A stretch of DNA of 64,000 nt from an uncultured Parcubacteria group bacterium (GTDB lineage Bacteria; Patescibacteriota; Patescibacteriia; UBA9934; CAMTUG01), in contig CAMTUG010000001.1 of the NCBI GenBank assembly GCA_947084965.1, forward strand, positions 345,293 to 409,292. Direction: 5' to 3'. The position numbers were made by a program, and so were the translations under genes. Positions 6,414 through 32,146 of the stretch are shown here, in pieces. Under the pieces are notes generated by a model that worked only from the letters and a program-made list of their open reading frames with translations, was not told where the DNA came from and ran no database searches. Within the stretch, counting starts at the first letter, position 1. Each line of letters begins with the position of its first letter.

Positions 6414-6965
6414 ATGAAGGAATTTGAAACGCGTGTTTTAGGGATTAATAAGGCGGAGCTCGCTAAAAAGCTCGAAGCGCTCGGGGCGAAGAAGGTGAAG
6501 GACGTTCTTCAGAAACGGATCACCTTTGATTATCCGGATCGCCGATTGGACGCCAAGAATGCCTTTATTCGTGTGCGCGATAACGGCTCAGGAAAAGTTG
6601 AGCTTGCGTACAAACGTAATCCACTCAGCTCCGAAGCTGGGGTGAGTGCAAGTGAAGAGATTGAGCTTGAAATTTCGGACATGGGCAAAGCAAAAGCCTT
6701 TTTTGAAGCGATCGGATTGGACGCAAAACAACTGATTGAGACGAAACGCATTACCTACACACTTGATGATTTAACGTTCGATATTGATGAGTGGCCGCTC
6801 CTTCCTCCGTTCGTCGAGGTCGAGGGTCCAAATGAGGCCCGTGTAATGGAAGGCGTCGCTCTCCTTGGATTCACAGAAGCGGATACGTTTCAAGGGGATG
6901 CGGGAAGTATGTATGACCAGAAAGGGATTGATTGGAAGGCGATGAAGGTGATTGCGTTCGATTAG
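6414..6965 (+). CDS. CYTH-domain protein (class IV adenylate cyclase / triphosphatase-like)
   Basis: N-terminal EFETRVL (ExExR/K), and EIELEIS later. 183 aa. Confidence 0.65.
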   Translation: MKEFETRVLGINKAELAKKLEALGAKKVKDVLQKRITFDYPDRRLDAKNAFIRVRDNGSGKVELAYKRNPLSSEAGVSASEEIELEISDMGKAKAFFEAIGLDAKQLIETKRITYTLDDLTFDIDEWPLLPPFVEVEGPNEARVMEGVALLGFTEADTFQGDAGSMYDQKGIDWKAMKVIAFD

Positions 6966-6966
6966 T

Positions 6967-7539
6967 ATGGGTACATTGATTTTGGTGCGGCATGGGGAAT
7001 CAGAATGGAATAAGTTGGGGCTGTGGACGGGGCATACGGATGTGGGTCTTACCGATCTCGGCATCGAGCAAGCGCGGACGGCGGCGGAGCAATTGCGTGA
7101 TCTGGAAGTGCACATCTGTCACACCTCGTCGCTCGGCCGTGTGAAGCGCACTTGGGAGCTGATTCGCGATCACCTCGGTTGGCACCATGTCGATCATCGG
7201 GTGCATGACGCGACGATCGAGCGCGATTACGGAGAACTGACAGGCAAGAACAAATGGCAGATTCAGGCCGAAGTCGGAGAGGAGCTGTTTCAAAAGATTC
7301 GTCGTAGTTGGGATTATCCGGTGCCGGGCGGAGAGACGTTGAAAGATGTGCATACGCGCATGTTGCCGTATTTTGAAACGTGTATTCGGCCGGATGTGGC
7401 GGCGGGGAAGAACGTCATGCTCTGCTCACACGGCAACACCCTCAGAGCACTGGTCAAGCACCTGGAAGAGATCTCTGATGCAGATGTAGCGGCGCTTGAA
7501 ATCGGTTTTGGCGAGGTGCGAACGTATGTGATAGAGTAA
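6967..7539 (+). CDS. histidine phosphatase family protein (phosphoglycerate mutase-like)
   Basis: LILVRHGESEWNKLGLWTGHTDVGLT, the RHGE catalytic motif. Start placed at the ATG at 6967. Confidence 0.7.
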   Translation: MGTLILVRHGESEWNKLGLWTGHTDVGLTDLGIEQARTAAEQLRDLEVHICHTSSLGRVKRTWELIRDHLGWHHVDHRVHDATIERDYGELTGKNKWQIQAEVGEELFQKIRRSWDYPVPGGETLKDVHTRMLPYFETCIRPDVAAGKNVMLCSHGNTLRALVKHLEEISDADVAALEIGFGEVRTYVIE

Positions 7540-7545
7540 TCGCAT

Positions 7546-7917
7546 ATGGCAAAACGCATTTTAATTATTGATGACGAAGTGCAGATTCGTGACCTACTCA
7601 AGTTGATGCTCGTCAAGGAGGGATTCGAAGTGATCGAAGCTGATAACGCCGGGGTTGGCTACGAAACGGCTTGTGCCCAAAAACCGGATCTGATTATCTC
7701 GGACATTATCATGCCGGGCGGTGACGGGCTGACCATGATCGGTCAGATTCGCGAGCATGCCGCCTGCAAAAAAACGCCGATCATCGTCCTTTCCAACCTG
7801 GACGACGAAGGCAGTGTCCAGATCGCAAACGACAGCGGTGTTTCTTGCTTCATCGTCAAAACGAATCTTGTTCCAGAGGTGATCATCCCTAAAGTCAAAG
7901 AGCTGCTCGGTCTTTAA
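7546..7917 (+). CDS. response regulator receiver-domain protein (CheY-like, stand-alone)
   Basis: ILIIDDE…LIISDIIMPG…K. 123 aa with no output domain. Confidence 0.75.
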   Translation: MAKRILIIDDEVQIRDLLKLMLVKEGFEVIEADNAGVGYETACAQKPDLIISDIIMPGGDGLTMIGQIREHAACKKTPIIVLSNLDDEGSVQIANDSGVSCFIVKTNLVPEVIIPKVKELLGL

Positions 7918-7935
7918 TTCTTCGCGTTCAACGCT

Positions 7936-8355
7936 ATGCAAATCGTGGAGGTCAATATCGTGGCGGCCCTTGTGGCCACCGTCGTTGCGTTCGTGGTCGG
8001 AGGGCTGTGGTATTCACCGCTGTTGTTCGGCAAGATGTGGATGAAGGAGATGAAGGCGACGGATGCGGATATCAAAAAGGCAAAAGAGAAAGGGATGGCA
8101 AAAGAGTACGCGCTGCAGTTTGTGGGAACCTTTTTAACGGCGTATGTGTTTGCTCATGTCCTTGCCTATGCAGAGGCCGTTCATGTAAACGAAGCGTTGC
8201 AAGGGGCGTTTTGGATGTGGCTCGGGTTTATCGTTCCCCTACAAATTGCTGCGATCGCTTGGACCAAGAAGAGCTGGACCTGGTTTGCTATTGATGGCGG
8301 ACACTACCTTGTGAGCTTGCTTGCCATGGCTGTTGTTTTGACCTGGATGTCGTAG
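7936..8355 (+). CDS. hypothetical membrane protein (DUF1761-like)
   Basis: 139 aa, several TM helices, WYSPLLFGKMW motif. Confidence 0.45.
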   Translation: MQIVEVNIVAALVATVVAFVVGGLWYSPLLFGKMWMKEMKATDADIKKAKEKGMAKEYALQFVGTFLTAYVFAHVLAYAEAVHVNEALQGAFWMWLGFIVPLQIAAIAWTKKSWTWFAIDGGHYLVSLLAMAVVLTWMS

Positions 8356-8395: not shown

Positions 8396-10393
8396 ATGAA
8401 ACGACGCACACATTCTATCCGGCCCCGTTGGATAACATGGGCCACAGCGACCGCCTGTTTCGTTCTGTTCCTGTTTTCGACCGTGGTCGCGTTCCCAAAT
8501 CAGACCTGGAATCGCGTCCCAGGGCTCCCGCCGCTTAGCCTGGCGGATTTTCGTCTCGGCCTTGATCTGCAAGGCGGAGCGCATTTAGTGTACGAGGCAG
8601 ACATGAGTCAGATCGCGGAGGCGGATCGCGACGAAGCGTTGAACGGGGTGAAAGATGTGATTGAGCGCCGTGTCAACGCTTTTGGGGTGGCTGAGCCGCT
8701 CGTGCAGACGACCGTGGTGGACGGTCACTACCGGGTGATCATTGAATTGGCCGGTGTGCTCGATATCTCCGAAGCGATTAAGCAGATCGGAGAGACACCG
8801 ATTTTGGAATTTAAAGAACAGAATCTTGAATATACCGGCGACCTGACGGAAGAACAGCAGGCACAAATTGATGCTGCTAATGCTCTGGAAAAAACCAAGG
8901 CGGACGGGCTCCTTGCTGATGCTCGTTCGGTCACAGATTTCTTGCAATTTGCGACAGACACAGCTGCGGCGGATCCAGAAACACTCGGGGGTGACCTCCC
9001 GTCCGTTTCTGGCGGGGTGTATCAAGCGGTCATTGATGACATTACCAAGAATCGCTACGCGGCAGGCACCGTTCTGCCGAACGTTTATGCACTAACGAAC
9101 AGCTACTCGATCTTCAAGTACGTTGAACCTTCGACAGACACCAACGAAATGCAGCTCTCGCATATTTTGGTCTGTTTTCAAGGGGCGACCGGCTGTGCCT
9201 CTGACCGCGATCAGATCGGAGCGAGTCTGATTATTTCGGAAATCCTTTCCAAGGTGAACGGGGAGAATTTTGCTGATCTTGCCATGCAATACTCGGAAGA
9301 CGGGGCGGCCGAAGCGGGTGGAGATTTGGGCTGGATTCAGCCGGGCGGGACGGTACCTGCCTTTGACGCCGCGGCACAAGCGCTCGCTGTTGGAGCGATC
9401 TCCACATCGGCCGTGGAAACGGAATACGGCTATCACCTGATCTACAAGCGAGGAGAGCGCCCGATCACGACCTATCATCTCCAGCACCTGAGCGTTCGCA
9501 AAACACTGGCTGGTGATCTGTTCCCGTTTGAGCAGTGGCAGAACACCGGGCTTTCGGGAAAGCAGCTAGAAACGGCGCGAGTAGAATTTGATCCAAATAC
9601 TGGCGCTCCACTCGTTTCGCTGAACTTTGATAGTGAAGGCGGAGAACTTTTTGCTGAGCTTACCGGTGCGCACATTGGCGAGCAGATCGCCATTTTCCTC
9701 GACGGAGAAGTGATCAGCGCACCGATGGTCCAGCAGCGCATTAGTGGCGGACAGGCGGTTATCACCGGGGACTTTACCCTGGCCGAAGCCAAATTACTCG
9801 CTCAGCGTTTAAATGCCGGTGCCTTGCCCGTTCCGGTCACTCTCGTTTCTCAGCAAACGGTCGGACCAACGCTCGGACAGGAATCCTTAGCCAAATCGAT
9901 CGACGCCGCGTTGATCGGTTTCGGCCTCGTTGCGCTCTTCATGATTCTGTACTACCGCTTGCCAGGGGCGGTCGCTGTGCTGACCTTGGCTGGCTACGCC
10001 GTCTTGAACTTACTCGCCTATAAAGGCTTGGACGTGACGATCACCCTCGCGGGTGTGGCCGGGTTTATCCTATCGATGGGGATGGCCGTTGATGCAAACG
10101 TCTTGATCTTCGAACGATTGAAGGAAGAGGTGCGAAGCGGCCGCGATGTTCCGTCGGCGCTTGAAGAGGCATTTGTGCGCGCCTGGCCGTCGATTCGCGA
10201 CGGGAACCTAACGACGCTGATCGCTTCGTTTATTCTCTTCTGGTTCTCCACGAGCTTTATTAAGGGGTTTGCCTTGACGCTGTCGATCGGGGTGTTGTTG
10301 AGCATGTTCTCGGCAGTGGTGATCACCCGCGTCGTCTTACGTCTCGCTTCATTCACCGGCGCTCGACGCTTCCCTTGGCTTTTCGGAAAATAG
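8396..10393 (+). CDS. secD: protein translocase subunit SecD with an inserted parvulin-type (PpiC) peptidyl-prolyl isomerase domain
   Basis: SecD head region (LGLDLQGGAHLVYEAD…) and the C-terminal TM bundle are present. Residues ~250-355 (nt ~9150-9460) read as a parvulin domain: LSHILV…FADLAMQYSEDGAAEAGGDLGWIQPGG…EYGYHLIYK. secF follows with a 1-nt gap. Confidence 0.85.
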   Translation: MKRRTHSIRPRWITWATATACFVLFLFSTVVAFPNQTWNRVPGLPPLSLADFRLGLDLQGGAHLVYEADMSQIAEADRDEALNGVKDVIERRVNAFGVAEPLVQTTVVDGHYRVIIELAGVLDISEAIKQIGETPILEFKEQNLEYTGDLTEEQQAQIDAANALEKTKADGLLADARSVTDFLQFATDTAAADPETLGGDLPSVSGGVYQAVIDDITKNRYAAGTVLPNVYALTNSYSIFKYVEPSTDTNEMQLSHILVCFQGATGCASDRDQIGASLIISEILSKVNGENFADLAMQYSEDGAAEAGGDLGWIQPGGTVPAFDAAAQALAVGAISTSAVETEYGYHLIYKRGERPITTYHLQHLSVRKTLAGDLFPFEQWQNTGLSGKQLETARVEFDPNTGAPLVSLNFDSEGGELFAELTGAHIGEQIAIFLDGEVISAPMVQQRISGGQAVITGDFTLAEAKLLAQRLNAGALPVPVTLVSQQTVGPTLGQESLAKSIDAALIGFGLVALFMILYYRLPGAVAVLTLAGYAVLNLLAYKGLDVTITLAGVAGFILSMGMAVDANVLIFERLKEEVRSGRDVPSALEEAFVRAWPSIRDGNLTTLIASFILFWFSTSFIKGFALTLSIGVLLSMFSAVVITRVVLRLASFTGARRFPWLFGK

Positions 10394-10394
10394 T

Positions 10395-11285
10395 ATGCAA
10401 TTTCCCATCATCAAACAGCGAAAGATTTGGTTCGGCTTCTCGGCAATCCTCCTTGTGGCGAGTATCTACGGATTGGTCGCTTACGGATTAAATCTTGGCG
10501 TTGATTTTACTGGCGGGTCGTTGATTGAACTGCGTATTTCGGGAGAAGCATCGAATACGCAGATGCGTGAACTCATCGAATCACAAGGGTTTGGCGAGGT
10601 GCGTGTTCAGGCATCAGAGGGCGGCGATTATCTGATCCGCTTGCAGGCCCTAAACGAAGAACAGCACCAGGCGCTTCTGACGGCCATCGAAACGTCGTTC
10701 GGAGAGACGGAAGAACTGCGTTTCGATTTTGTCGGTCCGGTGATCGGTGCAGAGCTCGCTCGTAAGGCGATCTGGTCCGTGGTTGTCCTGCTCATCCTGA
10801 TTGTGTTGTACGTGGCCTGGGCATTTCGCAAGGTTGCTCATCCTGTTACATCCTGGAAATACGGTGTCCTTACGATGGTCACAGCGTTACATGACGTGAT
10901 CGTGCCACTCGGGGTGTTCGCCTTCCTCGGCCATTTCTACGGGTACCAGGTTGATTCTGCCTTTGTGGCAGCGATTCTCACGATTCTTGGGTATTCGATC
11001 AATGATACGATCGTGGTCTTTGATCGCACCCGTGAAAATCTCGCTCAGCGATCGAGTGAAGATCCGTTCGAAGAGGTCGTCAATCGCGGCGTCAATCAAT
11101 CACTGGCCCGCTCCCTGAATACTACGCTGACAACCTTACTCGCCCTTGTTGCTGTCTACTTTTTTGGAGGGGACACAACGCGTCAATTCGCTCTGGCTCT
11201 CATGATCGGTATCGCCACTGGGGCGTATTCATCGGTTTTCATCGCTTCGCCACTTCTTGTTGTTTGGGAGAAGTGGAAGCGCTAA
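10395..11285 (+). CDS. secF: protein translocase subunit SecF
   Basis: 296 aa with a six-TM SecF pattern, immediately after secD. Confidence 0.85.
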   Translation: MQFPIIKQRKIWFGFSAILLVASIYGLVAYGLNLGVDFTGGSLIELRISGEASNTQMRELIESQGFGEVRVQASEGGDYLIRLQALNEEQHQALLTAIETSFGETEELRFDFVGPVIGAELARKAIWSVVVLLILIVLYVAWAFRKVAHPVTSWKYGVLTMVTALHDVIVPLGVFAFLGHFYGYQVDSAFVAAILTILGYSINDTIVVFDRTRENLAQRSSEDPFEEVVNRGVNQSLARSLNTTLTTLLALVAVYFFGGDTTRQFALALMIGIATGAYSSVFIASPLLVVWEKWKR

Positions 11286-11359: not shown

Positions 11360-13084
11360 ATGCCTGAGATTGAAATCGACCTTTCCTTTCTTTTCGCCTT
11401 TCTCCAAAGGCCGGACGTTTTTTTAGTCAAGGCGTTTCCGTATGTCGCCTGGATTCCGATCGCGGGAGTGTTGATCTGGGGGTTTTTTGAAGTCTGGAAG
11501 TTCAATCGCCAACACCATTTCCGACACGCGATGAAATACATCCTTTTGGCAATCGATGTGCCAAAGATGACCGAACAGTCGCCACAAGCGGTTGAGCAGA
11601 TTTTTGCTTCTTGTGCGGCGGCCTGGGGTGGAGCAACGTTCAAGGAGCAATGGATCGACGGGGAAGTCGCGCCTGTTTTTAGTTTTGAGCTGGTCTCTGA
11701 TGGTGGATACATTCAGTACTATGTTCGTACCCCGACAAAGTTTCGCGATATGATCGAAGCGGCGATTTACGCACAGTATCCGGATGCTGAAATCAGCGAA
11801 GCGCATGATTATGCCCATGATTGGCCCGAGCAGTACCCGAATGATACGCATGACTGTTGGGGGACGGAACAGAAGTTGAGCCAGCCGTACTACTTTCCGA
11901 TTCGCACCTGGCCGGAGTTCGAGCACAAGCTCTCACAAGAAATTAAAGACCCCGTAGGAATCTGGTTGGAGCAGATTTCCCGCCTTCAACCAGGAGAGGT
12001 GTTTGCCACCCAGATTTTGTGCATGCCGTTAGGTGAAGCGAAGACGAGTTGGACCAAAAAAGGGGTGGAGTATATTTATAAAGAGATCGGAAAAGAATCT
12101 AAGGACGCGCATAAAAAGGCTGGGATTCTGGGCGAAACGCTCGGTCAACTTTCTTCCTTGCCAATCGAAGCCGCTCAGCAATTTGGGGTGGCGATGTTTG
12201 GGGGCGGAGCCGATGCGCACGAAGAAAAGAAGGAAGACCCTTGGAAATTCTTGCGTTCTACACCGATCGACAAGGAACGTTTGGATAAAGTGACGGAGAA
12301 GATTCAAAAGCCGGCGATGTTGGTGAAGATTCGTCATGCGTATGTCGCGAAAAAAGAGGTGTATAAAAAGGGTCCGCGTGATAAGATGATCGCGTCCATC
12401 ATGTTCCAATACATGAACCCAAACACGAACTGGTTTGGACGCGTCGGGAAAATTACGCCGAAGACAGATTATTTTTGGCAGAACTGGTCGTTGGAAAAGC
12501 GCAAGCGAAGACTGATTAAGTCCTACATCCACCGTGATGAAGAATATGGACTCCATGGCAATATTCTGAACGTGGAAGAATTGGCTTCACTCTGGCACTT
12601 CCCAACGATCACCATCCTTGCTCCGTTCGTGAAAAAGACCGTTGCCAAGCGTGCGGAACCACCGGTGCAGTTGCCGTATGAGGAACCGGGCGCGGCTGAT
12701 TTTACTGGTGCAATAGCGGGCAAAAAGCCTTCGCGTTTGGCGATGCCGGTGGAATTTATTGAGCCAACGATACCTGGTCGTCCGCGTACTGCTTCGCCAG
12801 AAGCTCATCATGATGAACACGGCGCTGCGGTGGCTCACCAGCATCCAGAATCAAAGGAACATCATGCAGAAGCCCCACGGACGCACGAACGTAAAGCCGC
12901 TCCGCCGATCGGGCTTCCGGTTGAGCCGGATGTCGCGCCACATGTGCCGCAGACCCCAGGGCATCCTGCTTCCGTCCCTGAACATGCTGTTCCTGCGCCA
13001 AAGGCCCAGGCCCCGAGTCATCCATCCGCAACCGACGGCATTCCTGACGAAATCCGTCGGATGATTGACCCCAACTTCGAATAG
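11360..13084 (+). CDS. membrane-anchored N-domain protein of a split VirD4/TraD-like coupling-protein system, with a His/Pro/Ala-rich low-complexity tail
   Basis: N-terminal TM helix. The central region aligns with the N-terminal ~380 aa of the fused protein 47328..49847 (FELVSDGGYIQYYVRTPTKFRDMIEAAIYAQYPDAE vs FEIVAHEKVIKFYVTVPRRYQEFVEQQITAQHPDAF; EELASLWHFPT vs EEMASLFHLPL). The C-terminal ~100 aa are His-rich and low-complexity. Confidence 0.6.
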   Translation: MPEIEIDLSFLFAFLQRPDVFLVKAFPYVAWIPIAGVLIWGFFEVWKFNRQHHFRHAMKYILLAIDVPKMTEQSPQAVEQIFASCAAAWGGATFKEQWIDGEVAPVFSFELVSDGGYIQYYVRTPTKFRDMIEAAIYAQYPDAEISEAHDYAHDWPEQYPNDTHDCWGTEQKLSQPYYFPIRTWPEFEHKLSQEIKDPVGIWLEQISRLQPGEVFATQILCMPLGEAKTSWTKKGVEYIYKEIGKESKDAHKKAGILGETLGQLSSLPIEAAQQFGVAMFGGGADAHEEKKEDPWKFLRSTPIDKERLDKVTEKIQKPAMLVKIRHAYVAKKEVYKKGPRDKMIASIMFQYMNPNTNWFGRVGKITPKTDYFWQNWSLEKRKRRLIKSYIHRDEEYGLHGNILNVEELASLWHFPTITILAPFVKKTVAKRAEPPVQLPYEEPGAADFTGAIAGKKPSRLAMPVEFIEPTIPGRPRTASPEAHHDEHGAAVAHQHPESKEHHAEAPRTHERKAAPPIGLPVEPDVAPHVPQTPGHPASVPEHAVPAPKAQAPSHPSATDGIPDEIRRMIDPNFE

Positions 13085-13085
13085 T

Positions 13086-15065
13086 ATGGAGGACCACGTT
13101 CACACACATCACGGCGCTTCGCCGGACACGACGGGGCACGAAAAAGCGGGCCCGCCGCCGTACGATCACGATCATGAAAATGACATCATCTTTTTTGGTC
13201 GGACAAATTTTCGTAATCAGCTGAAAAAGTTCGGGATCAAAACCGATGATCGCCGCCGTCACATGTATCTGATCGGAAAGACCGGTGTGGGGAAGTCGAC
13301 GTTGCTGGAAAACATGGTGTTGGCCGATATCTACATGGGCCATGGTATCGGGCTGATCGATCCACACGGAGACTTTGCCGAAAAGATCGTTGATTTTATT
13401 CCGCCGCATCGGGTTAATGACGTCGTTTATTTTAACCCGGCGGACGCGGACTATCCGGTTGCCTTTAATATTCTCGAGTCGATTAATCCGGATCATAAAC
13501 ATCTTATTGCATCTGGGCTGATGGGGGTGTTTAAAAAGATCTGGCCGGACGTGTGGAGTGCACGTATGGAGCACATCATGAACATGGCGATCTTGTCGCT
13601 CCTCGAAATGCCGGGCAATACGTTGCTTGGAATTAATCGCCTGTTGGTAGATCAGGATTTCCGTCGTCACTTGATCGTGCAAATTAAAGATCCAGTCGTG
13701 AAGTCGTTCTGGATTACGGAGTTTGAGCAGTGGGAAGTAAAGTTTCGATCAGAAGCGATCGCCCCGATTCAAAACAAAGTTGGACAGTTTTTGTCGACCT
13801 CGCTTATTCGCAACATCGTCGGTCAGCAAAAGTCAACGATCGTTCCGCGAAAGATCATGGACGAACGCAAAATTTTCATCATCAACTTGGCCAAAGGACG
13901 CGTGGGGGAGGACGCCTCGCGCCTAATCGGTGGGATGCTTATTACCAAGATGCAGTTGGCGGCGATGGAGCGCGTGGACATTCCAGAGCCTGATCGTCAG
14001 GACTTCTACCTCTACATCGACGAGTTTCAAAACTTCGCCACAGAATCCTTCGCCAACATCTTGTCCGAGGCGCGTAAATATCGCTTGGCCCTGATCATGG
14101 CGCATCAGTACATCGAGCAGTTGGAAGAGGAAGTTGCCTCCGCCGTATTCGGGAACGTTGGGACGATGGTTGCCTATCGCGTCGGGGCGGGGGATGCGGA
14201 AAAGATGGCCACGGAATTTGCTCCGCGGTTCACGGAAGAGGACTTGGTCAACTTGCCGAAGTTCAACGTTTATTTGAAGTTGATGATCGATGGGATCGCA
14301 TCGGATCCATTTTCAGCAACGACCTTGCCGCCGATCAGTGCGCGTACCAATTCAACGGATGTGGTCGTTGCCGCTTCGCGTCGGCAGTACGCGCGTCCGC
14401 GCGAAGATGTAGAGGCGTCAATCGTTTCGTGGAGCGAAACAAAACGCGCCTTGACGCCGGAAGCGGCTGCGGCCTTACCGCCGCCAAAGATGGGCGGAGC
14501 AAAAAAGTTGAACGAATACGACTGTACGCGCTGCGGCAAGAAGATGCTGCTGCCAGTTGAGTTGGATCGCTCGCGGCCGATTTACTGCGAAACGTGCATT
14601 GAGATCGTTCGTGCAGAACGCAAGGCAGGGAAGCCGGCCGATGGGGCACCTGCGGCCAAACCGACGGATGCGAAGCCGGTAACTCCGGCGCTGCCAAAAC
14701 CGGCCGATTCTTCAGCTCCGGCTCGTCCGGAGCCGCCAAAAGTGGTGGAAACGGATCTAGCGCAAAAAGATGCCGCTGCCCCTGTTTCTCTTACCGAGCT
14801 CAATAAACCGGCCGCGCCGATTATTAAGGCGACTACTACGGAGCCGAAAGTTCCATCGACCCCGAGCGTTGTTCGCCCCGCGCCGACAAGCCCGGCTGGC
14901 GGTTCGAGTTCTGGCGGAGAGACTGAAGAGCAGAAAAAGCGCCGGCGCCGTCGACGCCGGTCTGGTTCTGGTGGCGGAGGTGGATCATCATCTCCTTCAG
15001 GTGGTGGATCCTCGACTCCAGCACCAACCAAGCCGTCGGGTGGTAATGATTTATTTCCTTGGTAA
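13086..15065 (+). CDS. VirD4/TraD/TrwB-like (type IV coupling protein family) P-loop ATPase, copy 1; carries a C-terminal Cys4 zinc-ribbon and an Ala/Pro/Lys-rich, poly-Arg, Gly/Ser-rich disordered tail
   Basis: Walker A YLIGKTGVGKST, DPHGDF (DPxGD-like), Walker B YLYIDEFQNF, and ALIMAHQY. The zinc-ribbon CTRCGKK…RPIYCETC is followed by low-complexity sequence ending in RRRRRRRSGSGGGGGSSS. Start at MEDHV, right after the TAGTATG junction. Confidence 0.75.
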   Translation: MEDHVHTHHGASPDTTGHEKAGPPPYDHDHENDIIFFGRTNFRNQLKKFGIKTDDRRRHMYLIGKTGVGKSTLLENMVLADIYMGHGIGLIDPHGDFAEKIVDFIPPHRVNDVVYFNPADADYPVAFNILESINPDHKHLIASGLMGVFKKIWPDVWSARMEHIMNMAILSLLEMPGNTLLGINRLLVDQDFRRHLIVQIKDPVVKSFWITEFEQWEVKFRSEAIAPIQNKVGQFLSTSLIRNIVGQQKSTIVPRKIMDERKIFIINLAKGRVGEDASRLIGGMLITKMQLAAMERVDIPEPDRQDFYLYIDEFQNFATESFANILSEARKYRLALIMAHQYIEQLEEEVASAVFGNVGTMVAYRVGAGDAEKMATEFAPRFTEEDLVNLPKFNVYLKLMIDGIASDPFSATTLPPISARTNSTDVVVAASRRQYARPREDVEASIVSWSETKRALTPEAAAALPPPKMGGAKKLNEYDCTRCGKKMLLPVELDRSRPIYCETCIEIVRAERKAGKPADGAPAAKPTDAKPVTPALPKPADSSAPARPEPPKVVETDLAQKDAAAPVSLTELNKPAAPIIKATTTEPKVPSTPSVVRPAPTSPAGGSSSGGETEEQKKRRRRRRRSGSGGGGGSSSPSGGGSSTPAPTKPSGGNDLFPW

Positions 15066-15068
15066 TGT

Positions 15069-16523
15069 ATGGAAGACGATCTCCAAGGTGGGTTCGGATC
15101 ATTTGCAGCGCCAACAACGCCGCCCGAGTTTGAGGCGTTCGTTGCTCGTCGCCATGAGCCGCCAGAAACTGTTCCGGTCAAAGGGTCGATCCCTGACGCG
15201 GACATCTCCCTATTTGGTCAAACAAATTACAGCCGCGGGTATGCCGGCGAACGGTATATTTTCGGTATCAAGCGCAAGGATCGCCGCCGTCATCTCTACG
15301 TTATTGGAAAGTCTGGCGTGGGAAAGACCAAGCTGCTCGAACAGTTGATTCGGGCGGACATCTTTTTTGGCCACGGCGTCGGAGTGATCGATCCGCACGG
15401 AGATTTGATCAACTCGATGCTCGAGTTCATTCCAGAGAATCGCATCAACGACGTGGTGGTGATCGATCCGGCCGATCGTGATTTTCCGATTAGCTTCAAC
15501 CCGATCGCCAACGTGGCTGAAGAGGACAAGCACATGGTCACCGACTCGATGATCGAAATTTTCAAAAAGCAGTTTGCGTCGGATTGGTCGCCACGTATTG
15601 AACACTTGCTGCGTTTTTCCACGCTCGCCATGATCGATTACCCCAAAGGAACGATGAACGGGATGGTTTCTTTGCTCTCGAGCGGGCCGTATCGTTCCAA
15701 GGTGATTGAGCATATTAAAGATCCGGTCGTGCGTCGTTTCTGGGCGATCGAATTTCCAGAGTGGTCACAGCGCTATGACGCTGAAGCGGTGTCGCCGCTT
15801 TTGAACAAACTCGGTCAGTTGCTGGCGGACCCATTGATGCGCAACATTTTTGGACAGACAGAATCGAAGATCGATCTGTACGACATCATGCAGAAGAAAA
15901 AGATTCTCCTCGTCAACTTGTCCAAAGGACGCGTTGGTGACGAAAAATCGGCGTTCTTCGGTGCGGTGCTTGTGACGAAGTTGTACCAAGCATCAATGCA
16001 GCGCATTCGCTTGGCAGAAAAAGATCGTCTGCCGTTTTATCTGTACGTTGATGAATTTCAAAACATCGCTACCAAGACGTTTGAAAATATTTTGGCCGAG
16101 GCGCGCAAATTCGGATTTTGTTTGACCGTGGCGAACCAAAACTTGTCACAGTTATCGCCGTCCTTGCGCTCGTCCTTGTTTGGAAACGTCGCTTCGATCA
16201 TCGTTTTCCAAATCAGTGCTGAAGACGCTGATCTGATGAGCAATGAAATGAAGCCGATCTTTGAAACACAAGACATGATCAACCTTTCTGAACGTGAAGT
16301 GTATGTCAAAATGACGATCGATGGTCGCCGCTGGGATCCGTTCTCGGCCGAAGTGCTCCCCGTGACCGCTCCGCGTCATGCCCCGTTTACGGAAGCGATC
16401 ATGAAGCAATCCCGCGAGCTGTATGCCAAACCGCGCGACGTGGTGGAGCGTGAACTAGAAGGTGGCGCGGTCGAAGAGCAAAAAGCCGCCCCGGTCATCA
16501 GCGCCGACGATATTATTGTATAA
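15069..16523 (+). CDS. VirD4/TraD/TrwB-like P-loop ATPase, copy 2 (tandem paralog without the zinc-ribbon/IDR tail)
   Basis: YVIGKSGVGKTKL, DPHGDL, YLYVDEFQNI, LTVANQNL. Also starts MED…. Confidence 0.75.
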   Translation: MEDDLQGGFGSFAAPTTPPEFEAFVARRHEPPETVPVKGSIPDADISLFGQTNYSRGYAGERYIFGIKRKDRRRHLYVIGKSGVGKTKLLEQLIRADIFFGHGVGVIDPHGDLINSMLEFIPENRINDVVVIDPADRDFPISFNPIANVAEEDKHMVTDSMIEIFKKQFASDWSPRIEHLLRFSTLAMIDYPKGTMNGMVSLLSSGPYRSKVIEHIKDPVVRRFWAIEFPEWSQRYDAEAVSPLLNKLGQLLADPLMRNIFGQTESKIDLYDIMQKKKILLVNLSKGRVGDEKSAFFGAVLVTKLYQASMQRIRLAEKDRLPFYLYVDEFQNIATKTFENILAEARKFGFCLTVANQNLSQLSPSLRSSLFGNVASIIVFQISAEDADLMSNEMKPIFETQDMINLSEREVYVKMTIDGRRWDPFSAEVLPVTAPRHAPFTEAIMKQSRELYAKPRDVVERELEGGAVEEQKAAPVISADDIIV

Positions 16524-16543
16524 TCAAGAGGTATCCGATACGA

Positions 16544-16567
16544 TAGGCGGGGTCACGTACCCCGCCT
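16544..16567 (+). promoter_or_regulatory. GC hairpin (GGCGGGGT-cacgt-ACCCCGCC) + TTT in the only >2-bp gap of the block; possible attenuator or processing site
   Basis: Perfect 8-bp stem between ATPase copy 2 and the first array gene. Confidence 0.3.
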
Positions 16568-16581
16568 TTCACGCAAAAAAT

Positions 16582-18312
16582 ATGTCCAACACCCCCAACT
16601 ACGACGCCAAGGTTCAAGCGATTCTCGACGCGACTCAGCCGGGGGAGAGGACGTGCGCGATTACGGGGGAGAAATGGGTTCAGGACGACGAAGAGCTTCG
16701 CTGGTACAAAGAGTTTAACGTCCCACCGTCGGCCCATGCGCCGTACACACGGATGCAGTGTTTTACATCGTTTTTTCGAAGCGGACAGTGGTGGTGGAAT
16801 AAACATCCGGTGACGGGAAAGCCCCTTATCTCGTCGGTGCACCCGGCGTGCGGTGTCCCTGTTCTACCGGACAAAGAATGGCATCAGAAAGATTTTCAGG
16901 AGGTGCAGTCTGAAGTCGATCTTTCGCGATCGTTCATTGATCAGATGTTTGAGCTGCGGAAACGCGTTCCGGCCGCAGCGCATGGAAATTATCAGGAGCC
17001 GGAGAATTCGATCGCCGTTGCTTCGTTTGGCGACGTCAATTCGTATTTTATGGTGGCGAGCAAAGGGAAGAATTGTTTCTTCAGCATCGTGGTGTTGAAC
17101 GGCGAGAATTCATCCGAGGTGTACAACAGCGAATCGATCACCGACAGCTATCACGTCATTCACTGCGAGCGGATGTTTAATTGTCAGTACGTGCGCGAGT
17201 CAAAGGATTGTCTCAACGCGCTTTTCTTGTTTGATTGTCGCAATTGCGAGTTTGTTTTCGGTGGATCGAATCTACGCAATAAAAAGTACGTGTGGTTCAA
17301 CGAACAATTAACGCAGGAAGAATGGGAACGTCGTCGAGCCGAAGTGAACACCGCTTCACGGTCGGCGATGCAACCACATCTCGAACGCTTCGAACAGATG
17401 ATTCAGGACGCGGTCTGGCCAGAAAATTTTAACATCAAATCAGAGAACTGCGTCGGTGAATATCTGACTAACTGTGAAGACAGTCGCTTTGTTTACTATG
17501 CCGACGGCGGCGCCCGTAATAACTACTGGATCGCTTGGTTAATTGGCAAGGCCGAACACAACGCCTTTGTCGCCGATCCGGCTAGTTCGCAAGATACGTA
17601 TTGCTCGACCGCGCTTTCGAGCTGTTTCAATACCAAGTTCTCTGTCTATTCCGTGCGCTGTAAAGATGTCGAATATTGTCTTGAGTGTTATGACTCGGAA
17701 TACTGCTTTGGATGCGTCGGCTTGCGTAAGAAGAGGTTCTGTATTTTGAACAAGCAGTACACCGAATCTGAGTATTGGCCAATGATCGACGCGATCAAGT
17801 GTGCGATGATCGATCGAGGGGAATATGCCGAAGGAGTTCCTCCGAAGTTTTCGCTCGGCTGGTTTCCAGAATCTGGCGCGGCCAAATATTATCAGTCGAC
17901 AGAAGAGTTTGGGCGCAGGATCGGTGCCAACGTATTTGATCCTGCATCTGAAGGAGCGTACGGCGACGAATTGATGACCGCCCGCGAGGTACGCGACGTT
18001 TCGCAAATCCCAGACGATGCCAAGGAATTGGATGGCTGGGCAGGTGTTGCTTTATTCGATCCGGAATTTAAGCGCCGGTATTCTTTGCTCGCGCCCGAAA
18101 TCGCTTTGTACCAAAAGCTGAAGATCGCTCCGCCGAACACACACTTCATTGATCGCGTTCATAAGTACATTCGCCTCGGCAACGCTCCAATCTTCCTCGA
18201 GGCCTCCTGTGCAAACTGCAGCAAGCAAGTGACGATCGCCAAAAATCCAACGTACACCAATCGCAAAATCTACTGCACCGAGTGCTACGTGAAGTACTTG
18301 GAAAGCAAATAA
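16582..18312 (+). CDS. Cys-rich paralog family protein, member 1 of 10 (uncharacterized family)
   Basis: MSNTPNYDAKVQAILDA…FDCRNCEFVFGGSNLRNKKYVWFNEQLTQEEWERRR…EYCLECYDSEYCFGCVGL…CANCSKQVTIAKNPTYTNRKIYCTECY. Start placed at the conserved MSNTP motif (tracked ORF begins upstream at 16462). Confidence 0.7.
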   Translation: MSNTPNYDAKVQAILDATQPGERTCAITGEKWVQDDEELRWYKEFNVPPSAHAPYTRMQCFTSFFRSGQWWWNKHPVTGKPLISSVHPACGVPVLPDKEWHQKDFQEVQSEVDLSRSFIDQMFELRKRVPAAAHGNYQEPENSIAVASFGDVNSYFMVASKGKNCFFSIVVLNGENSSEVYNSESITDSYHVIHCERMFNCQYVRESKDCLNALFLFDCRNCEFVFGGSNLRNKKYVWFNEQLTQEEWERRRAEVNTASRSAMQPHLERFEQMIQDAVWPENFNIKSENCVGEYLTNCEDSRFVYYADGGARNNYWIAWLIGKAEHNAFVADPASSQDTYCSTALSSCFNTKFSVYSVRCKDVEYCLECYDSEYCFGCVGLRKKRFCILNKQYTESEYWPMIDAIKCAMIDRGEYAEGVPPKFSLGWFPESGAAKYYQSTEEFGRRIGANVFDPASEGAYGDELMTAREVRDVSQIPDDAKELDGWAGVALFDPEFKRRYSLLAPEIALYQKLKIAPPNTHFIDRVHKYIRLGNAPIFLEASCANCSKQVTIAKNPTYTNRKIYCTECYVKYLESK

Positions 18313-18313
18313 T

Positions 18314-20044
18314 ATGTCCAACACCCCCAACTACGACGCCAAAGTCAGAGCGATTCTCGACGGGCTTACACCCGGCGAGCGTGTTTGTTCGCTCACAGGC
18401 GAGAAGTGGATGATGACCGAGGAAGAGATCGGTTGGTATAAAAAGTTTAATGTGCCACCGAGCACAGTTGCGCCGATGAATCGGGTTAAGCTGACCACTC
18501 TTTTTGGTACGGGATTTGGCTGGTGGTGGAATAAGCACGCCAAAACAGGGAAGCCGTTGTTGTCGTATGTGCATCCGGCCAACGGAATCAAAGTTCTGCC
18601 TGATCCAGAGTTTTTTGAACAGGACAATACGGACAAAGCGCGTGAGTACGACACAGAACAGAGTTTTTTTGATCAGATTCGTGCCCTTCAGCTTGAAGTT
18701 CCCTTTACGGCTTGGCGTTCGTTGACTGTGCCGGTCAATTCGATCGCTCTTTTGTCGCAAGGGGACGAGAACAGCTATTTCGTCACCGCCTGTAAATCCA
18801 AAAATTCATTCTACGCCTATTCGGTTGATGACATGGAAAACTCGGCCGAAGCGTTCGAATCCAAGTTTGTTGTTAATTCCTACAACGTTCTTAACTCGCA
18901 GCGCATTCATAACTGTAAGTTTGTGCGTCAGTCGTATGACTGCATGAACTGTAGTTTTGTTTTTGACTGTCGTAACTGCGAGTTTGTCTTTGGTGGCTCA
19001 AACCTGCGCAACAGAAAGTACGTATTTTTCAACGAGCAGTTGAGCAAAGAGGGCTGGGAAGCGCGCGTTGCCGCAATCGACCTCGGCAGCCGTCAGGTTC
19101 TCGAGGAATATATCGCCAAGTTCCAAGATCTGGTGGGACATAAAGCGGTCTGGCCAGAGAACTTCAATGAACAAGTCGAGGATTGCATCGGTGAATACTT
19201 GAATAAGTGCCGACAGTGTAAGTATCTGCTGGCAGGACATGGATCAGCCAATAACTACTACGGCGCGGTCTTTATCGACAACAGCGAAAATAATGCCTTC
19301 GTCGGCGGGGCGATTGGAAGCTTCGACAACATCTATTGTCATGCTCCGCTCAAGTCACGTGGTTGTAAGTACGTGCATTCAACGTACGAATCACAGAACA
19401 TGGAATACTGTATGCAGTGCTACAACTGTGAAAATTGTTTTGGGTGTGTTGGTCTGATCCGCAAGTCGTTCTGCATCTTCAATAAACAGTACACGCCAGA
19501 AGAGTATTGGAAGCGCGTCGATGAGTTAAAATGTGCCATGCTTGATCGCGGAGAGTACGGAGAATTCTTCCCAGCGAAGTTCTCCCCGAGCTACTGGGCC
19601 GTTTCTGTCGGGTTGCTCTATCAGATCGAAGATCCTGAAGCGATTAAGCTCGGAGCGCTCATGCTTGATCCGGAATCGGCCGGCGCGCTTGGGGAATTGC
19701 CGGTCGGGGCGGTGATGCGTTCATCTGATGATCTGCCAGATAACATCAAAGAGGTTGGTGAGGACTGGGGTGGTCAACCGATGATGGATCCGGTTGAAAA
19801 GCGTCGTTACGCCCTGTTAAAGCCCGAGATCGCCCTCTACAAGCAGTTAGGGGTCGCTGTGCGCGCTATGCACCCAATGAAGCGTCTTCGATCGATGGTT
19901 TTTGAAGCCAACTCGGGGAACTTCATCGACTCAACCTGCGCCAAGTGTGGCAAAGCAGTGACGGTAGCAACCAATAAAACATATCCCGACCGCGTCATCT
20001 ACTGCCGCGAGGATTACCTCAAATTCATCGAACAAAACGGCTAG
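18314..20044 (+). CDS. Cys-rich paralog family protein, member 2 of 10
   Basis: MSNTPNYDAKVRAILDG…. The terminal motif is CAKCGK…IYCREDY, with the fourth Cys replaced by Asp. Confidence 0.7.
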   Translation: MSNTPNYDAKVRAILDGLTPGERVCSLTGEKWMMTEEEIGWYKKFNVPPSTVAPMNRVKLTTLFGTGFGWWWNKHAKTGKPLLSYVHPANGIKVLPDPEFFEQDNTDKAREYDTEQSFFDQIRALQLEVPFTAWRSLTVPVNSIALLSQGDENSYFVTACKSKNSFYAYSVDDMENSAEAFESKFVVNSYNVLNSQRIHNCKFVRQSYDCMNCSFVFDCRNCEFVFGGSNLRNRKYVFFNEQLSKEGWEARVAAIDLGSRQVLEEYIAKFQDLVGHKAVWPENFNEQVEDCIGEYLNKCRQCKYLLAGHGSANNYYGAVFIDNSENNAFVGGAIGSFDNIYCHAPLKSRGCKYVHSTYESQNMEYCMQCYNCENCFGCVGLIRKSFCIFNKQYTPEEYWKRVDELKCAMLDRGEYGEFFPAKFSPSYWAVSVGLLYQIEDPEAIKLGALMLDPESAGALGELPVGAVMRSSDDLPDNIKEVGEDWGGQPMMDPVEKRRYALLKPEIALYKQLGVAVRAMHPMKRLRSMVFEANSGNFIDSTCAKCGKAVTVATNKTYPDRVIYCREDYLKFIEQNG

Positions 20045-20045
20045 T

Positions 20046-21785
20046 ATGAGTAACACCCCCAACTACGACGCCAAAGTCAAAGCGATTATCGACGGCATTC
20101 AGCCGGGCGCACGGGTGTGTTCGGTGCTCGGAGAGAAGTGGGAGATGACGGAGAAGGAGATCGATCTCTACCGTCGATTCAATATGCCGCCGCGGACGGT
20201 CGCAACGAACACACTGTGGAAACAGATGGCGTATTACGATGCCGGCTATCAGTTTTGGTGGAACAAGCATCCGGACACAGGAAAGCCTGTGCTTTCGTTT
20301 CATCATCCCGCTTCAGGTGTAAAAGTGCTTCCAGATGCAGAGTGGCACGCGCGAGACTTTAGCACGATCAACATCGATATCGATCCTTCGAAGCCATTCT
20401 TCGAGCAACTGCGTTCGTTGCAAGTTCAGGTTCCACTGCTTGCTACATTTAGCCGCGTCGAACCAGAAAACTCCATCACCTTGTTTTCGTTTGGTGATCG
20501 TAACAGTTACTTCACCTTTGCCTGTACGTCGGAGCGTACCTTTTTTGCTACCGGCGGATTTGAAGCGCAAGGGTCATCGCTGCTGTTCACCACGAATCAA
20601 ACGACGGACTGTCACCATGTTTTTAAATCTCAACGCATCTTCAAATGTCGTTATGTGCGTGAATCGCTTGACTGCATCGACAGCGCGTTCCTGTTCGATT
20701 GTCGTAACTGTCAGAACTGCTTCGGGGCGAGCAACAAGCGCAATCGGCAGTATGTCTTCATGAATGAGCAGTTGACGAAGGAAGAATACGAACAGCGCAT
20801 GAGTCAGATTGATTTAAGCAAGCGCAGTGAAGTGGAAACGTGGTCAAAGGCGTTTGATGAACTCTTAGCACGTGATGGTGTCTGGCCGGAAAACTTTAAT
20901 GTCAATTGTCAGGATTCGACCGGTGAATATCTCACGGGCGCGGTACGCTGTGATACTTGCTATGACTCGGCGGATGCGCCGAGCGATCAGTATCACACCT
21001 GTTGGAGTTATGGGGTCAATAACAATAATGCCTTCATGTGGGGCTCGGTCGATAGCACGGACGGGTACATGGTTTGTTCCTGTCCAAACTCAAACCAGAC
21101 GAAGTTTTCGTATCGCTCGTTCCGGTTAGATAACTGCGAGTACTGTTTCATGTGTGCGGACTTGCGCGATTGTTTCGGTTGCATCGGCTTAAAGAAAAAA
21201 CGGTTTTGTATTTTTAACAAGCAATACGAAGAGGAGGAGTATTGGCGTCTGGTCGACGAAATAAAATGTGCCATGCTCGAACGCGGGGAATATGGTCAGT
21301 ATTTTCCAACTTCGATGGCGACGACGTTCGTGCCGGAAGGCGGAGCAGTTGTGTACTGCGGGGCGACGCCAGAAGAGTTGCAAAAGCTCGGCGGGCAAAC
21401 GTTCGGGGCGGAAGACATGGATGCTACGGGTACGGGCCGGATCGACCCATCAAAAGCGCGTCGCCGTGAGGACATTCCAGATGCGATCGATGACCTTGGC
21501 GACGAATGGATCGGTGTACCGATCTACGATGAGGTGTCTGGACGGACGTTCGCCTTTTTAAAGCCAGAGGTCGAACATTATCGCCGCTTACGCATCGCTC
21601 CTCCGAATACGCACTTCATTCGTCGTATGCATGAGGTATCAAGTGCGGGACAGCGTGCCTGTTTGCAAAACGCTTCCTGTGCGCAGTGCAGCGCTACATT
21701 TATCGTAGCCAAGAATTTCCGCTATCCGGACCGCCGCATCTACTGCAAGGCGTGCTACACTGCCTTCATTGAAAAGAACGGCTAG
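20046..21785 (+). CDS. Cys-rich paralog family protein, member 3 of 10
   Basis: MSNTPNYDAKVKAIIDG…FDCRNCQNCFGASNKRN…CAQCSATFIVAKNFRYPDRRIYCKACY. Confidence 0.7.
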   Translation: MSNTPNYDAKVKAIIDGIQPGARVCSVLGEKWEMTEKEIDLYRRFNMPPRTVATNTLWKQMAYYDAGYQFWWNKHPDTGKPVLSFHHPASGVKVLPDAEWHARDFSTINIDIDPSKPFFEQLRSLQVQVPLLATFSRVEPENSITLFSFGDRNSYFTFACTSERTFFATGGFEAQGSSLLFTTNQTTDCHHVFKSQRIFKCRYVRESLDCIDSAFLFDCRNCQNCFGASNKRNRQYVFMNEQLTKEEYEQRMSQIDLSKRSEVETWSKAFDELLARDGVWPENFNVNCQDSTGEYLTGAVRCDTCYDSADAPSDQYHTCWSYGVNNNNAFMWGSVDSTDGYMVCSCPNSNQTKFSYRSFRLDNCEYCFMCADLRDCFGCIGLKKKRFCIFNKQYEEEEYWRLVDEIKCAMLERGEYGQYFPTSMATTFVPEGGAVVYCGATPEELQKLGGQTFGAEDMDATGTGRIDPSKARRREDIPDAIDDLGDEWIGVPIYDEVSGRTFAFLKPEVEHYRRLRIAPPNTHFIRRMHEVSSAGQRACLQNASCAQCSATFIVAKNFRYPDRRIYCKACYTAFIEKNG

Positions 21786-21786
21786 T

Positions 21787-23514: not shown

Positions 23515-23515
23515 T

Positions 23516-25249: not shown

Positions 25250-25250
25250 T

Positions 25251-26996: not shown

Positions 26997-26997
26997 T

Positions 26998-28683: not shown

Positions 28684-28684
28684 T

Positions 28685-30415: not shown

Positions 30416-30416
30416 T

Positions 30417-32144: not shown

Positions 32145-32146
32145 GT

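Follow-up and report, generated by a model that had tools for sequence, protein, structure and literature searches.

How exported, unfolded chains pass from the Sec channel to their folding helpers is still debated, and a secD gene from an uncultured Parcubacteria group bacterium raises the question of whether a translocase subunit can carry a folding helper within its own chain. The gene lies in a stretch of 64,000 nucleotides of contig CAMTUG010000001.1 (GenBank assembly GCA_947084965.1), the whole of which is called the window below. An initial annotation, made from the letters of the window alone, had proposed that the periplasmic head of the encoded SecD contains a parvulin-type peptidyl-prolyl isomerase (PPIase) domain of about 105 residues. 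We find a true parvulin domain, far above chance, in the periplasmic P1 region of SecD between the first transmembrane helix (TM1) and the TM bundle, as judged by Pfam, NCBIfam, alignment to the Thermus thermophilus SecDF structure 3AQP, and fold. The parvulin signature therefore stands, but the size does not: the foreign part spans about 225 amino acids (aa 143-368) and comprises two parvulin folds. The single domain of the initial annotation corresponds to the second of these, whereas the other fold, the nested permuted arrangement of the pair and a conserved cysteine pair had been missed.

The SecD scaffold and the insertion point

The open reading frame (ORF) belongs to the SecD family, scoring 374 bits against the NCBIfam model TIGR01129 (secD, cut-off 244.4) with model positions 1-396 spread over aa 54-647. 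Pfam-A recognizes SecD_1st (aa 85-142), SecDF_P1_head (aa 384-479, E 2.9e-32) and SecD_SecF_C (aa 483-648). In the same scan the parvulin domain is detected above the gathering scores by two families, Rotamase_3 (PF13616; aa 237-349, E 2e-24, 86.8 bits versus 22.5) and Rotamase (PF00639; aa 256-350, E 1e-18, 68.4 bits versus 21.7). The motifs on which the proposal had been based are all present in the ORF (LSHILVCFQGATGC at 9155-9196, SEDGAAEAGGDLGW at 9293-9334, and TEYGYHLIYK from 9419), and the interval originally assigned to the domain, 9150-9460, corresponds to its core, aa 254-351.

TM1, the P1 base and head, the C-terminal five-TM bundle and the SecDF fold are all present, as seen from Pfam, the helices of the AlphaFold2 (AF2) model and Foldseek, whose top matches are the SecDF structures 5YHF, 5XAN and 3AQP (E 1e-20 to 1e-23). 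In the 3AQP alignment, D566 of SecD, which is invariant in the family alignment, lies opposite D340 of Thermus SecDF, and D204 and R239 of SecF lie opposite D637 and R671. These three Thermus residues are said to be functional residues of the proton path, in Thermus work attributed to Tsukazaki in 2011 and Furukawa in 2017. Their counterparts in SecD and SecF are retained and the motor shows no sign of decay; the ORF is probably a functional SecD partnered with the adjoining SecF.

Residues 21-148 of this SecD align to residues 9-124 of Thermus SecDF and residues 368-662 to residues 142-437; between the two blocks, some 220-225 residues replace a Thermus connector of about 17 (125-141). The insert directly follows the strand ILEFKE (AVLEFRIV in Thermus) and stands just ahead of the P1 head, for which the Pfam match starts at profile position 19. 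The periplasmic P1 region had thus been correctly named as the location, but the insert is not in the head itself; it occupies the junction of base and head. The supposition that such an architecture is not canonical is borne out by the SecD and SecDF proteins of T. thermophilus (3AQP, 5YHF), Deinococcus radiodurans (5XAN) and E. coli (5MG3). They align on either side of the insert and share TM1, the P1 base, the head, the five-TM bundle, the Asp of TM4 (D566), the Asp and Arg of SecF and the fold, but have only about 17 residues in its place, and no solved structure of a canonical SecD or SecDF contains a PPIase domain. By homology to SecDF, the insert would lie on the extracytoplasmic side of the membrane.

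The AF2 model of the full-length protein has a mean predicted local distance difference test score (pLDDT) of 89.7, with most of the insert above 90; its predicted template modelling score (pTM) of 0.52 is expected because the domains are mobile. Modelled alone, the insert reaches a pLDDT of 88.9. The isolated Thermus P1 domain (3AQO) superposes on the SecD model with a template modelling score (TM-score) of 0.74, normalised to the target, which together with the SecDF matches of Foldseek indicates that the SecD scaffold is intact around the insert. In both AF2 models, strands 236-259 and 345-368 are very long and pass through both parvulin domains.

Homologs were compared in two sets. The first comprises the 120 best protein matches in a collection of 5.8 billion proteins (51-66% identity, 626-978 aa). 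The second was drawn from genomes representing the GTDB species, one for each, which yielded at least 437 confirmed loci; the detailed figures given here refer to the best 80, which are 33-46% identical over the insert and all span both of its junctions. Rotamase and SecD Pfam domains occur together in all 120 best matches, where the insert is 226-260 aa long, and the full architecture is found in all 80 inspected species loci. In 75 of these, secF is directly downstream of secD or fused to it, the remaining five loci ending at contig edges. The insert is thus the rule in a large clade of Patescibacteria and is not confined to one genome.

These counts also refute a trivial explanation, namely an artefact of assembly or gene calling in which a chimeric contig or a read-through fusion has joined a separate PPIase gene to secD. 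The source is indeed a metagenome-type genome, but no evidence supporting such an error was found. SecD sequence flanks the insert both before and after it within a single frame; AF2 folds SecD confidently as one chain; and the same architecture recurs in matches from independent projects and in species-representative genomes. The probability of an artefact is practically nil.

One parvulin nested within another

Parvulins share a hydrogen-bond network of the form His-(Cys/Asp)-(Ser/Thr)-His, represented by H59/C113/S154/H157 in Pin1 and by H42/D74/T118/H123 in Par14. Motif alignment to these two proteins assigns the tetrad H256, D302, T342 and H347 to domain 2, in which the proline-pocket residues L311 and F323 are preserved as well. 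The fold of this domain is that of a parvulin, with a four-stranded antiparallel sheet and four helices in the arrangement beta-alpha3-beta-alpha-beta2. Among the species loci, H256, H347, T/S342 and S/T300 are found in 80 of 80 and D/E302 in 74 (93%), whereas the equivalent positions of domain 1 drift (N/E/V/H/A at 238, R/H/A/V at 364); in domain 1 of this genome SYS replaces GYH, and the catalytic network is absent. The conservation in domain 2 of what is left free in domain 1 is the best evidence in the analysis for selection on catalysis in domain 2, which appears to be an active PPIase of the PrsA/SurA-P2 type with its His-Asp-Thr-His network intact.

The relationship of domain 1 to the parvulins is established by several comparisons. 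Profile-profile alignment (hhalign) of aa 143-249 with aa 250-354 gave a probability of 97.0% and an E value of 1.9e-10 over 90 columns. A hidden Markov model (HMM) of aa 143-249, built from the 120 closest homologs, cross-matches the parvulin domains of unrelated, stand-alone proteins, and a parvulin HMM matches the upstream segment in diverged members of the family. Domain 1 of this SecD is itself below Pfam detection, but when the domain was excised from ten family members, Pfam Rotamase matched eight of them at 34-64 bits (gathering score 21.7). These matches always span profile positions from about 10-15 to 97, which means that the first strand is absent. The order of elements by DSSP is alpha-alpha-beta-alpha-beta-beta, and the pLDDT is mostly 90 or higher, falling to about 70 around aa 191-200.

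A strand matching the absent one lies on the far side of domain 2. Prepending aa 355-370 to domain 1 raised the hhalign score from 56.3 to 64.4 (probability 97.8%, E 6.3e-12, 103 columns) and aligned the prepended strand tYxlq[R/H]I onto eMxLSHIL, the SHIL strand of domain 2; the SecD strand 133-142, prepended as beta1 in the same way, brought no gain in hhalign. In addition, His364 co-occurs with His238, the GYH position of domain 1, in seven of eight species loci (Fisher p 2.6e-5) and in 13 of 17 cases in the protein set (p 3e-12), both values being uncorrected for phylogeny. Domain 1 is thus a parvulin in circularly permuted form, and domain 2 is a second parvulin lodged within it. The chain runs from the SecD base into domain 1 (alpha1 to beta4, including beta2-beta4), then through the whole of domain 2, and from there through beta1 of domain 1 into the SecD head. 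For protein-fold evolution, the case adds a nested, circularly permuted parvulin.

Another assignment considered for aa 143-249, a helical chaperone segment like that of PrsA, was ruled out: the segment has no SurA_N match, it is homologous to parvulin, and the strand that precedes it (133-142) does not improve the alignment.

Domain 1 is most likely a decayed parvulin that serves as a scaffold or as a peptide-binding platform. All 80 species have kept it, and some of its non-catalytic positions, among them L173 and A176, are conserved. A subgroup of homologs (loci L011, L018, L020, L023, L030, L033, L035 and L050; proteins P0020, P0057, P0059, P0064, P0084, P0090 and others) retains the His in beta4 of domain 1, and seven of its eight loci also have a His in the displaced beta1 strand (A-H-I-E-M). 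In this subgroup a second functional site may possibly exist.

A further feature of domain 2 is the pair C260 and C267, invariant in the 120 closest homologs. Both cysteines are present in 65 of the 80 species loci and neither in 15, and no locus has only one; in the whole extracytoplasmic P1 region there are no cysteines in 15 loci, two in 64 and three in one. The pair probably forms a disulfide that staples the beta1-alpha1 loop. The motif H-I-L-x-C-x6-C occurs also in the stand-alone foldases P0220 and P0256, which consist of SurA_N plus parvulin, and in P0240, titled Woesearchaeota (a DPANN archaeon), which has a thioredoxin domain too. Since the same Cys motif is found in these free foldases, the inserted catalytic domain appears to be of a disulfide-stapled subtype of parvulin that exists in free form as well, which is a second point of interest for the evolution of the fold.

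Proposed function of the insert at the translocon exit

SecDF uses the proton-motive force (PMF) to pull chains out of SecYEG. Its P1 head turns from the F form to the I form and back and has an amphiphilic cavity proposed to bind precursors (PMC8082313). We favor, with moderate confidence, the reading that the insert is a foldase and PPIase on the PMF-driven P1 head, which binds emerging chains and couples prolyl isomerisation to translocation. A rigid two-domain parvulin module would have been acquired at the junction of P1 base and head. The head, swinging under the PMF, would capture unfolded chains leaving SecYEG, and the parvulin pair next to its capture site would bind the emerging chain and catalyse cis/trans isomerisation of prolyl bonds, presumably after a hand-off of the substrate from head to parvulin. 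Translocation and the first folding steps would in this way be coupled in a single polypeptide. That a foldase is placed at the translocon exit, as the initial annotation had suggested, is a reasonable reading in view of the conserved catalytic residues.

The protein belongs to the SecD family and includes a true parvulin domain, but does not count as a PrsA, SurA or PpiD, because it has neither a SurA_N/NC domain nor an anchor of its own. No match to SurA_N, SurA_N_2 or SurA_N_3 was found in this SecD at E values up to 0.01, while the same models match P0220, P0240 and P0256. The parvulin pair is internal to the SecD ORF and has no anchor or targeting signal corresponding to the lipobox of PrsA, the single TM helix of PpiD or the signal peptide of SurA. 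In comparison with PrsA and SurA, the insert thus lacks the SurA_N/NC chaperone domain and the lipobox, SecD itself being the membrane anchor, and differs by its permuted domain 1 with the nested domain 2 and by the Cys-x6-Cys staple.

By analogy, the insert most likely acts like PrsA, SurA or PpiD, but in cis, as a covalent version of contacts known or proposed between SurA and SecDF, between PpiD and SecYEG, and in the translocon dome of Mycoplasma. All AlphaFold models of one study place both parvulin domains of SurA on the P1 head of SecDF (PMC9987972). The same two partners are joined here, in what would be a covalent fusion of the Rosetta-stone type at the head, whereas in E. coli the contact of SurA with SecDF is transient and of low affinity, involves separate proteins and serves the delivery of outer-membrane proteins. 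PpiD-YfgM meets SecYEG at SecY, non-covalently (PMC8082313, PMC9643414); PpiD of E. coli differs from the SecD insert in being a separate single-pass protein that binds SecY and is not coupled to the PMF-driven SecDF head. In M. pneumoniae the PrsA-like Mdp lipoproteins (Mdp436/444/489) form a dome over SecYEG-SecDF, and substrate density touches the active PPIC domain (10.1101/2025.04.25.650208; 10.1101/2024.09.05.611430). The dome resembles the fusion in placing PPIC-domain proteins at the translocon, to which they are near-obligately attached in the genome-reduced M. pneumoniae, but it consists of separate large lipoproteins, is trimeric, has no covalent link to SecDF and belongs to an unrelated lineage and architecture. 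The contacts proposed for SurA with SecDF, for PpiD with SecY and in the Mycoplasma dome are either weak or transient, or have been observed at low resolution only. Evolution offers independent evidence that the pairing is functional, in that a large clade has joined two parvulin folds to SecD where its moving P1 head begins. The fusion also provides a stable single-chain SecDF-foldase complex for structural and biochemical work.

Several points weigh against the foldase reading. We infer the PPIase activity of domain 2 from its sequence, and at position 302 only some half of the 80 species loci have Asp, most of the rest having Glu, a pattern to which an alignment shift may contribute. The cysteine pair is missing from 15 of the 80 species and is therefore not essential to the design. 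With a pTM of only 0.52, the full-length model would not fix where the parvulin pair lies with respect to the head cavity and SecY. Among the relatives, the parvulin domains of PpiD and SurA-P1 are catalytically inactive. Mutations in the active site of B. subtilis PrsA abolish PPIase activity with little effect on secretion (PMC12445088). The state of these PrsA mutants and of the inactive PpiD and SurA-P1 domains suggests that catalysis may be secondary to binding.

The chief alternative goes further in the same direction and takes the parvulin pair for a non-catalytic chaperone or holdase, or a clamp against backsliding, which extends the substrate surface of the P1 head and in which isomerase chemistry is irrelevant in vivo. 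Beside the PPIase-dead PrsA mutants that still support secretion (PMC12445088), it can draw on PpiD, which aids release and keeps chains from sliding back but does not itself pull on them (PMC8082313), and on domain 1, whose retention in all 80 species after loss of the catalytic residues implies that a non-enzymatic parvulin fold is useful at this place. It does not agree with the conservation of domain 2, where the histidines are kept at 100% and T/S342 and S300 at 98-100% at 33-46% overall identity while the domain 1 equivalents vary, so that selection seems to act on the catalytic network. We regard this alternative as unlikely, although it is the main competitor of the foldase reading.

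The same residues bear on a purely mechanical explanation, according to which the insert is a structural or regulatory element of the motor: a strut or stop that tunes the swing between F-form and I-form, or a dock for YidC, the cell wall or the S-layer. The insertion is exactly at the connection of base and head, beside the hinge strand ILEFKE, and is built on a rigid two-strand ribbon in the AF2 models. The SecD family is also known to vary in length by lineage, NCBIfam models of SecD and SecDF having 604-1403 positions, a range that concerns overall length and not P1 specifically. But such a role leaves the preserved tetrad, L311 and F323 of domain 2 unexplained, and the inserted domain is most closely related to PrsA/SurA-type foldases. 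It is, in our opinion, very improbable.

Returning to the foldase, a bolder idea would tie its action to the proton cycle. With each PMF-driven swing of the P1 head between F and I forms, the rigid parvulin ribbon would be carried across the SecY exit, and proton flux would time capture, isomerisation and release. We consider this rather doubtful. If true, the fusion would be a foldase coupled to an energy source outside the cytoplasm, where ATP is absent; it would replace free chaperones of the PrsA/PpiD type in the clade, and it would count as Rosetta-stone evidence from nature for a transfer of substrates from SecDF to parvulin chaperones in bacteria at large.

Distribution, origin and genomic context

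The named proteins among the 120 best matches are annotated as 'protein translocase subunit SecD' of Candidatus Uhrbacteria or Patescibacteria, and the closest labelled relative is an Uhrbacteria metagenome-assembled genome (MAG) with 58% SecD identity. The titles of the best 80 species loci include Uhrbacteria, Magasanikbacteria, Falkowbacteria, one Nomurabacteria, the Parcubacteria group and the Patescibacteria group; we take the named lineages to belong to the GTDB class ABY1. A library of representatives at 50% identity contained 15 SecD-parvulin fusions or fragments among the 150 matches listed (P0005 and 14 others), one of them a Falkowbacteria cluster. Judged by sequence affinity, the carriers of the fusion are all Patescibacteria, among which it is common to hundreds of species (at least 437 loci).

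A spread beyond Patescibacteria, suggested by the titles Gammaproteobacteria, Binatia and Hyphomicrobiales, was ruled out, the SecDs in question being 48-95% identical to those labelled Patescibacteria. Such titles ('uncultured Gammaproteobacteria', 'Candidatus Binatia' or 'uncultured Hyphomicrobiales') are erroneous in 34 species-representative MAG records (L004, L006, L009, L011, L017 and about 30 more). Representative matches of about 650 aa, which had looked like additional SecD fusions, were likewise rejected: they lack any part of SecD and are proteins with several parvulin domains that resemble SurA and PpiD.

A search for the donor of the insert among stand-alone tandem parvulins gave no clear candidate, the nearest proteins being 37-41% identical and coming from Planctomycetota, Pseudomonadota and other sources. 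The fusion may, as the initial annotation had proposed, make up for a reduced chaperone set; the data that bear on this idea are that no other parvulin gene is present in the window, nor within 4 kb on either side of secD in the 80 related loci. In the literature, searched in full text, no SecD-parvulin fusion was described; the domain architecture is new to that literature, with the nested permuted parvulin and the Cys staple as further new details. The database entries are public and have precomputed Pfam matches, but they are named only SecD, and a dedicated NCBIfam model does not exist; thousands of entries with this label are thus open to more accurate annotation.

Table 1. Coordinates of secD, its domains and sites, and secF in the window (Tt, T. 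thermophilus)
Feature	Position	Strand	Evidence
secD ORF with parvulin insert, 665 aa	8396..10393	+	ORF list; NCBIfam, Pfam, Foldseek
TM1, aa ~11-32, after basic N-terminus MKRRTHSIRPR	8426..8491	+	AF2 helix 11-32; aligns to TM1 of Tt SecDF
P1 base, N-terminal part, aa 52-142, last strand ILEFKE	8549..8821	+	Pfam Sec_GG aa 52-71, SecD_1st aa 85-142; aligns to Tt SecDF 33-118
Parvulin-like domain 1, aa 143-249, degenerate, without N-terminal beta1	8822..9142	+	hhalign, Pfam on relatives, HMM cross-matches, DSSP
Parvulin domain 2, aa 250-354, complete PpiC-type PPIase fold	9143..9457	+	Pfam, fold
Tetrad codons of domain 2	H256 9161-9163; D302 9299-9301; T342 9419-9421; H347 9434-9436	+	
C260-x6-C267 pair, beta1-alpha1 loop of domain 2, putative disulfide	9173..9196	+	Conservation, co-occurrence
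Strand aa 355-368, ERPITTYHLQHLSV, displaced beta1 of domain 1, running on from beta4 of domain 2	9458..9499	+	AF2, hhalign
P1 head subdomain, aa 384-480	9545..9835	+	Pfam SecDF_P1_head E 2.9e-32, profile 19-114; Tt SecDF 142-250; 3AQO TM-score 0.74
TM2-TM6 bundle, D566 opposite Tt D340	9836..10354	+	Pfam SecD_SecF_C; 3AQP alignment, AVDANV versus AVDGNV
secF, 296 aa, begins 1 nt past the secD stop	10395..11285	+	TIGR00966, 297 bits versus cut-off 160

Tightly packed genes upstream of secD on the same strand (6952-8355, +) encode a histidine phosphatase (His_Phos_1), a response-regulator receiver domain that stands alone, and a membrane protein with DUF1761. Directly past secF (11360-15065, +), a 574-aa ORF without a Pfam match is followed by a TraG/VirD4-like coupling-protein ATPase (TrwB_AAD_bind, E 1e-10); with 25% and 40% identity, the two resemble a split copy of an 839-aa ORF at 47328-49847 (+). 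Farther downstream, nine adjoining paralogous genes (16462-33883, +) encode proteins of 561-617 aa with 33-52% mutual identity. The three of them that were scanned (16462-18312, 18314-20044 and 25143-26996) gave no Pfam family, the sole exception being a weak match to a treble-clef zinc finger at the C-terminus of the first. Finally, the window is 94% coding with nearly all large genes on the plus strand, and its cumulative GC skew rises almost throughout, which fits a single replichore.

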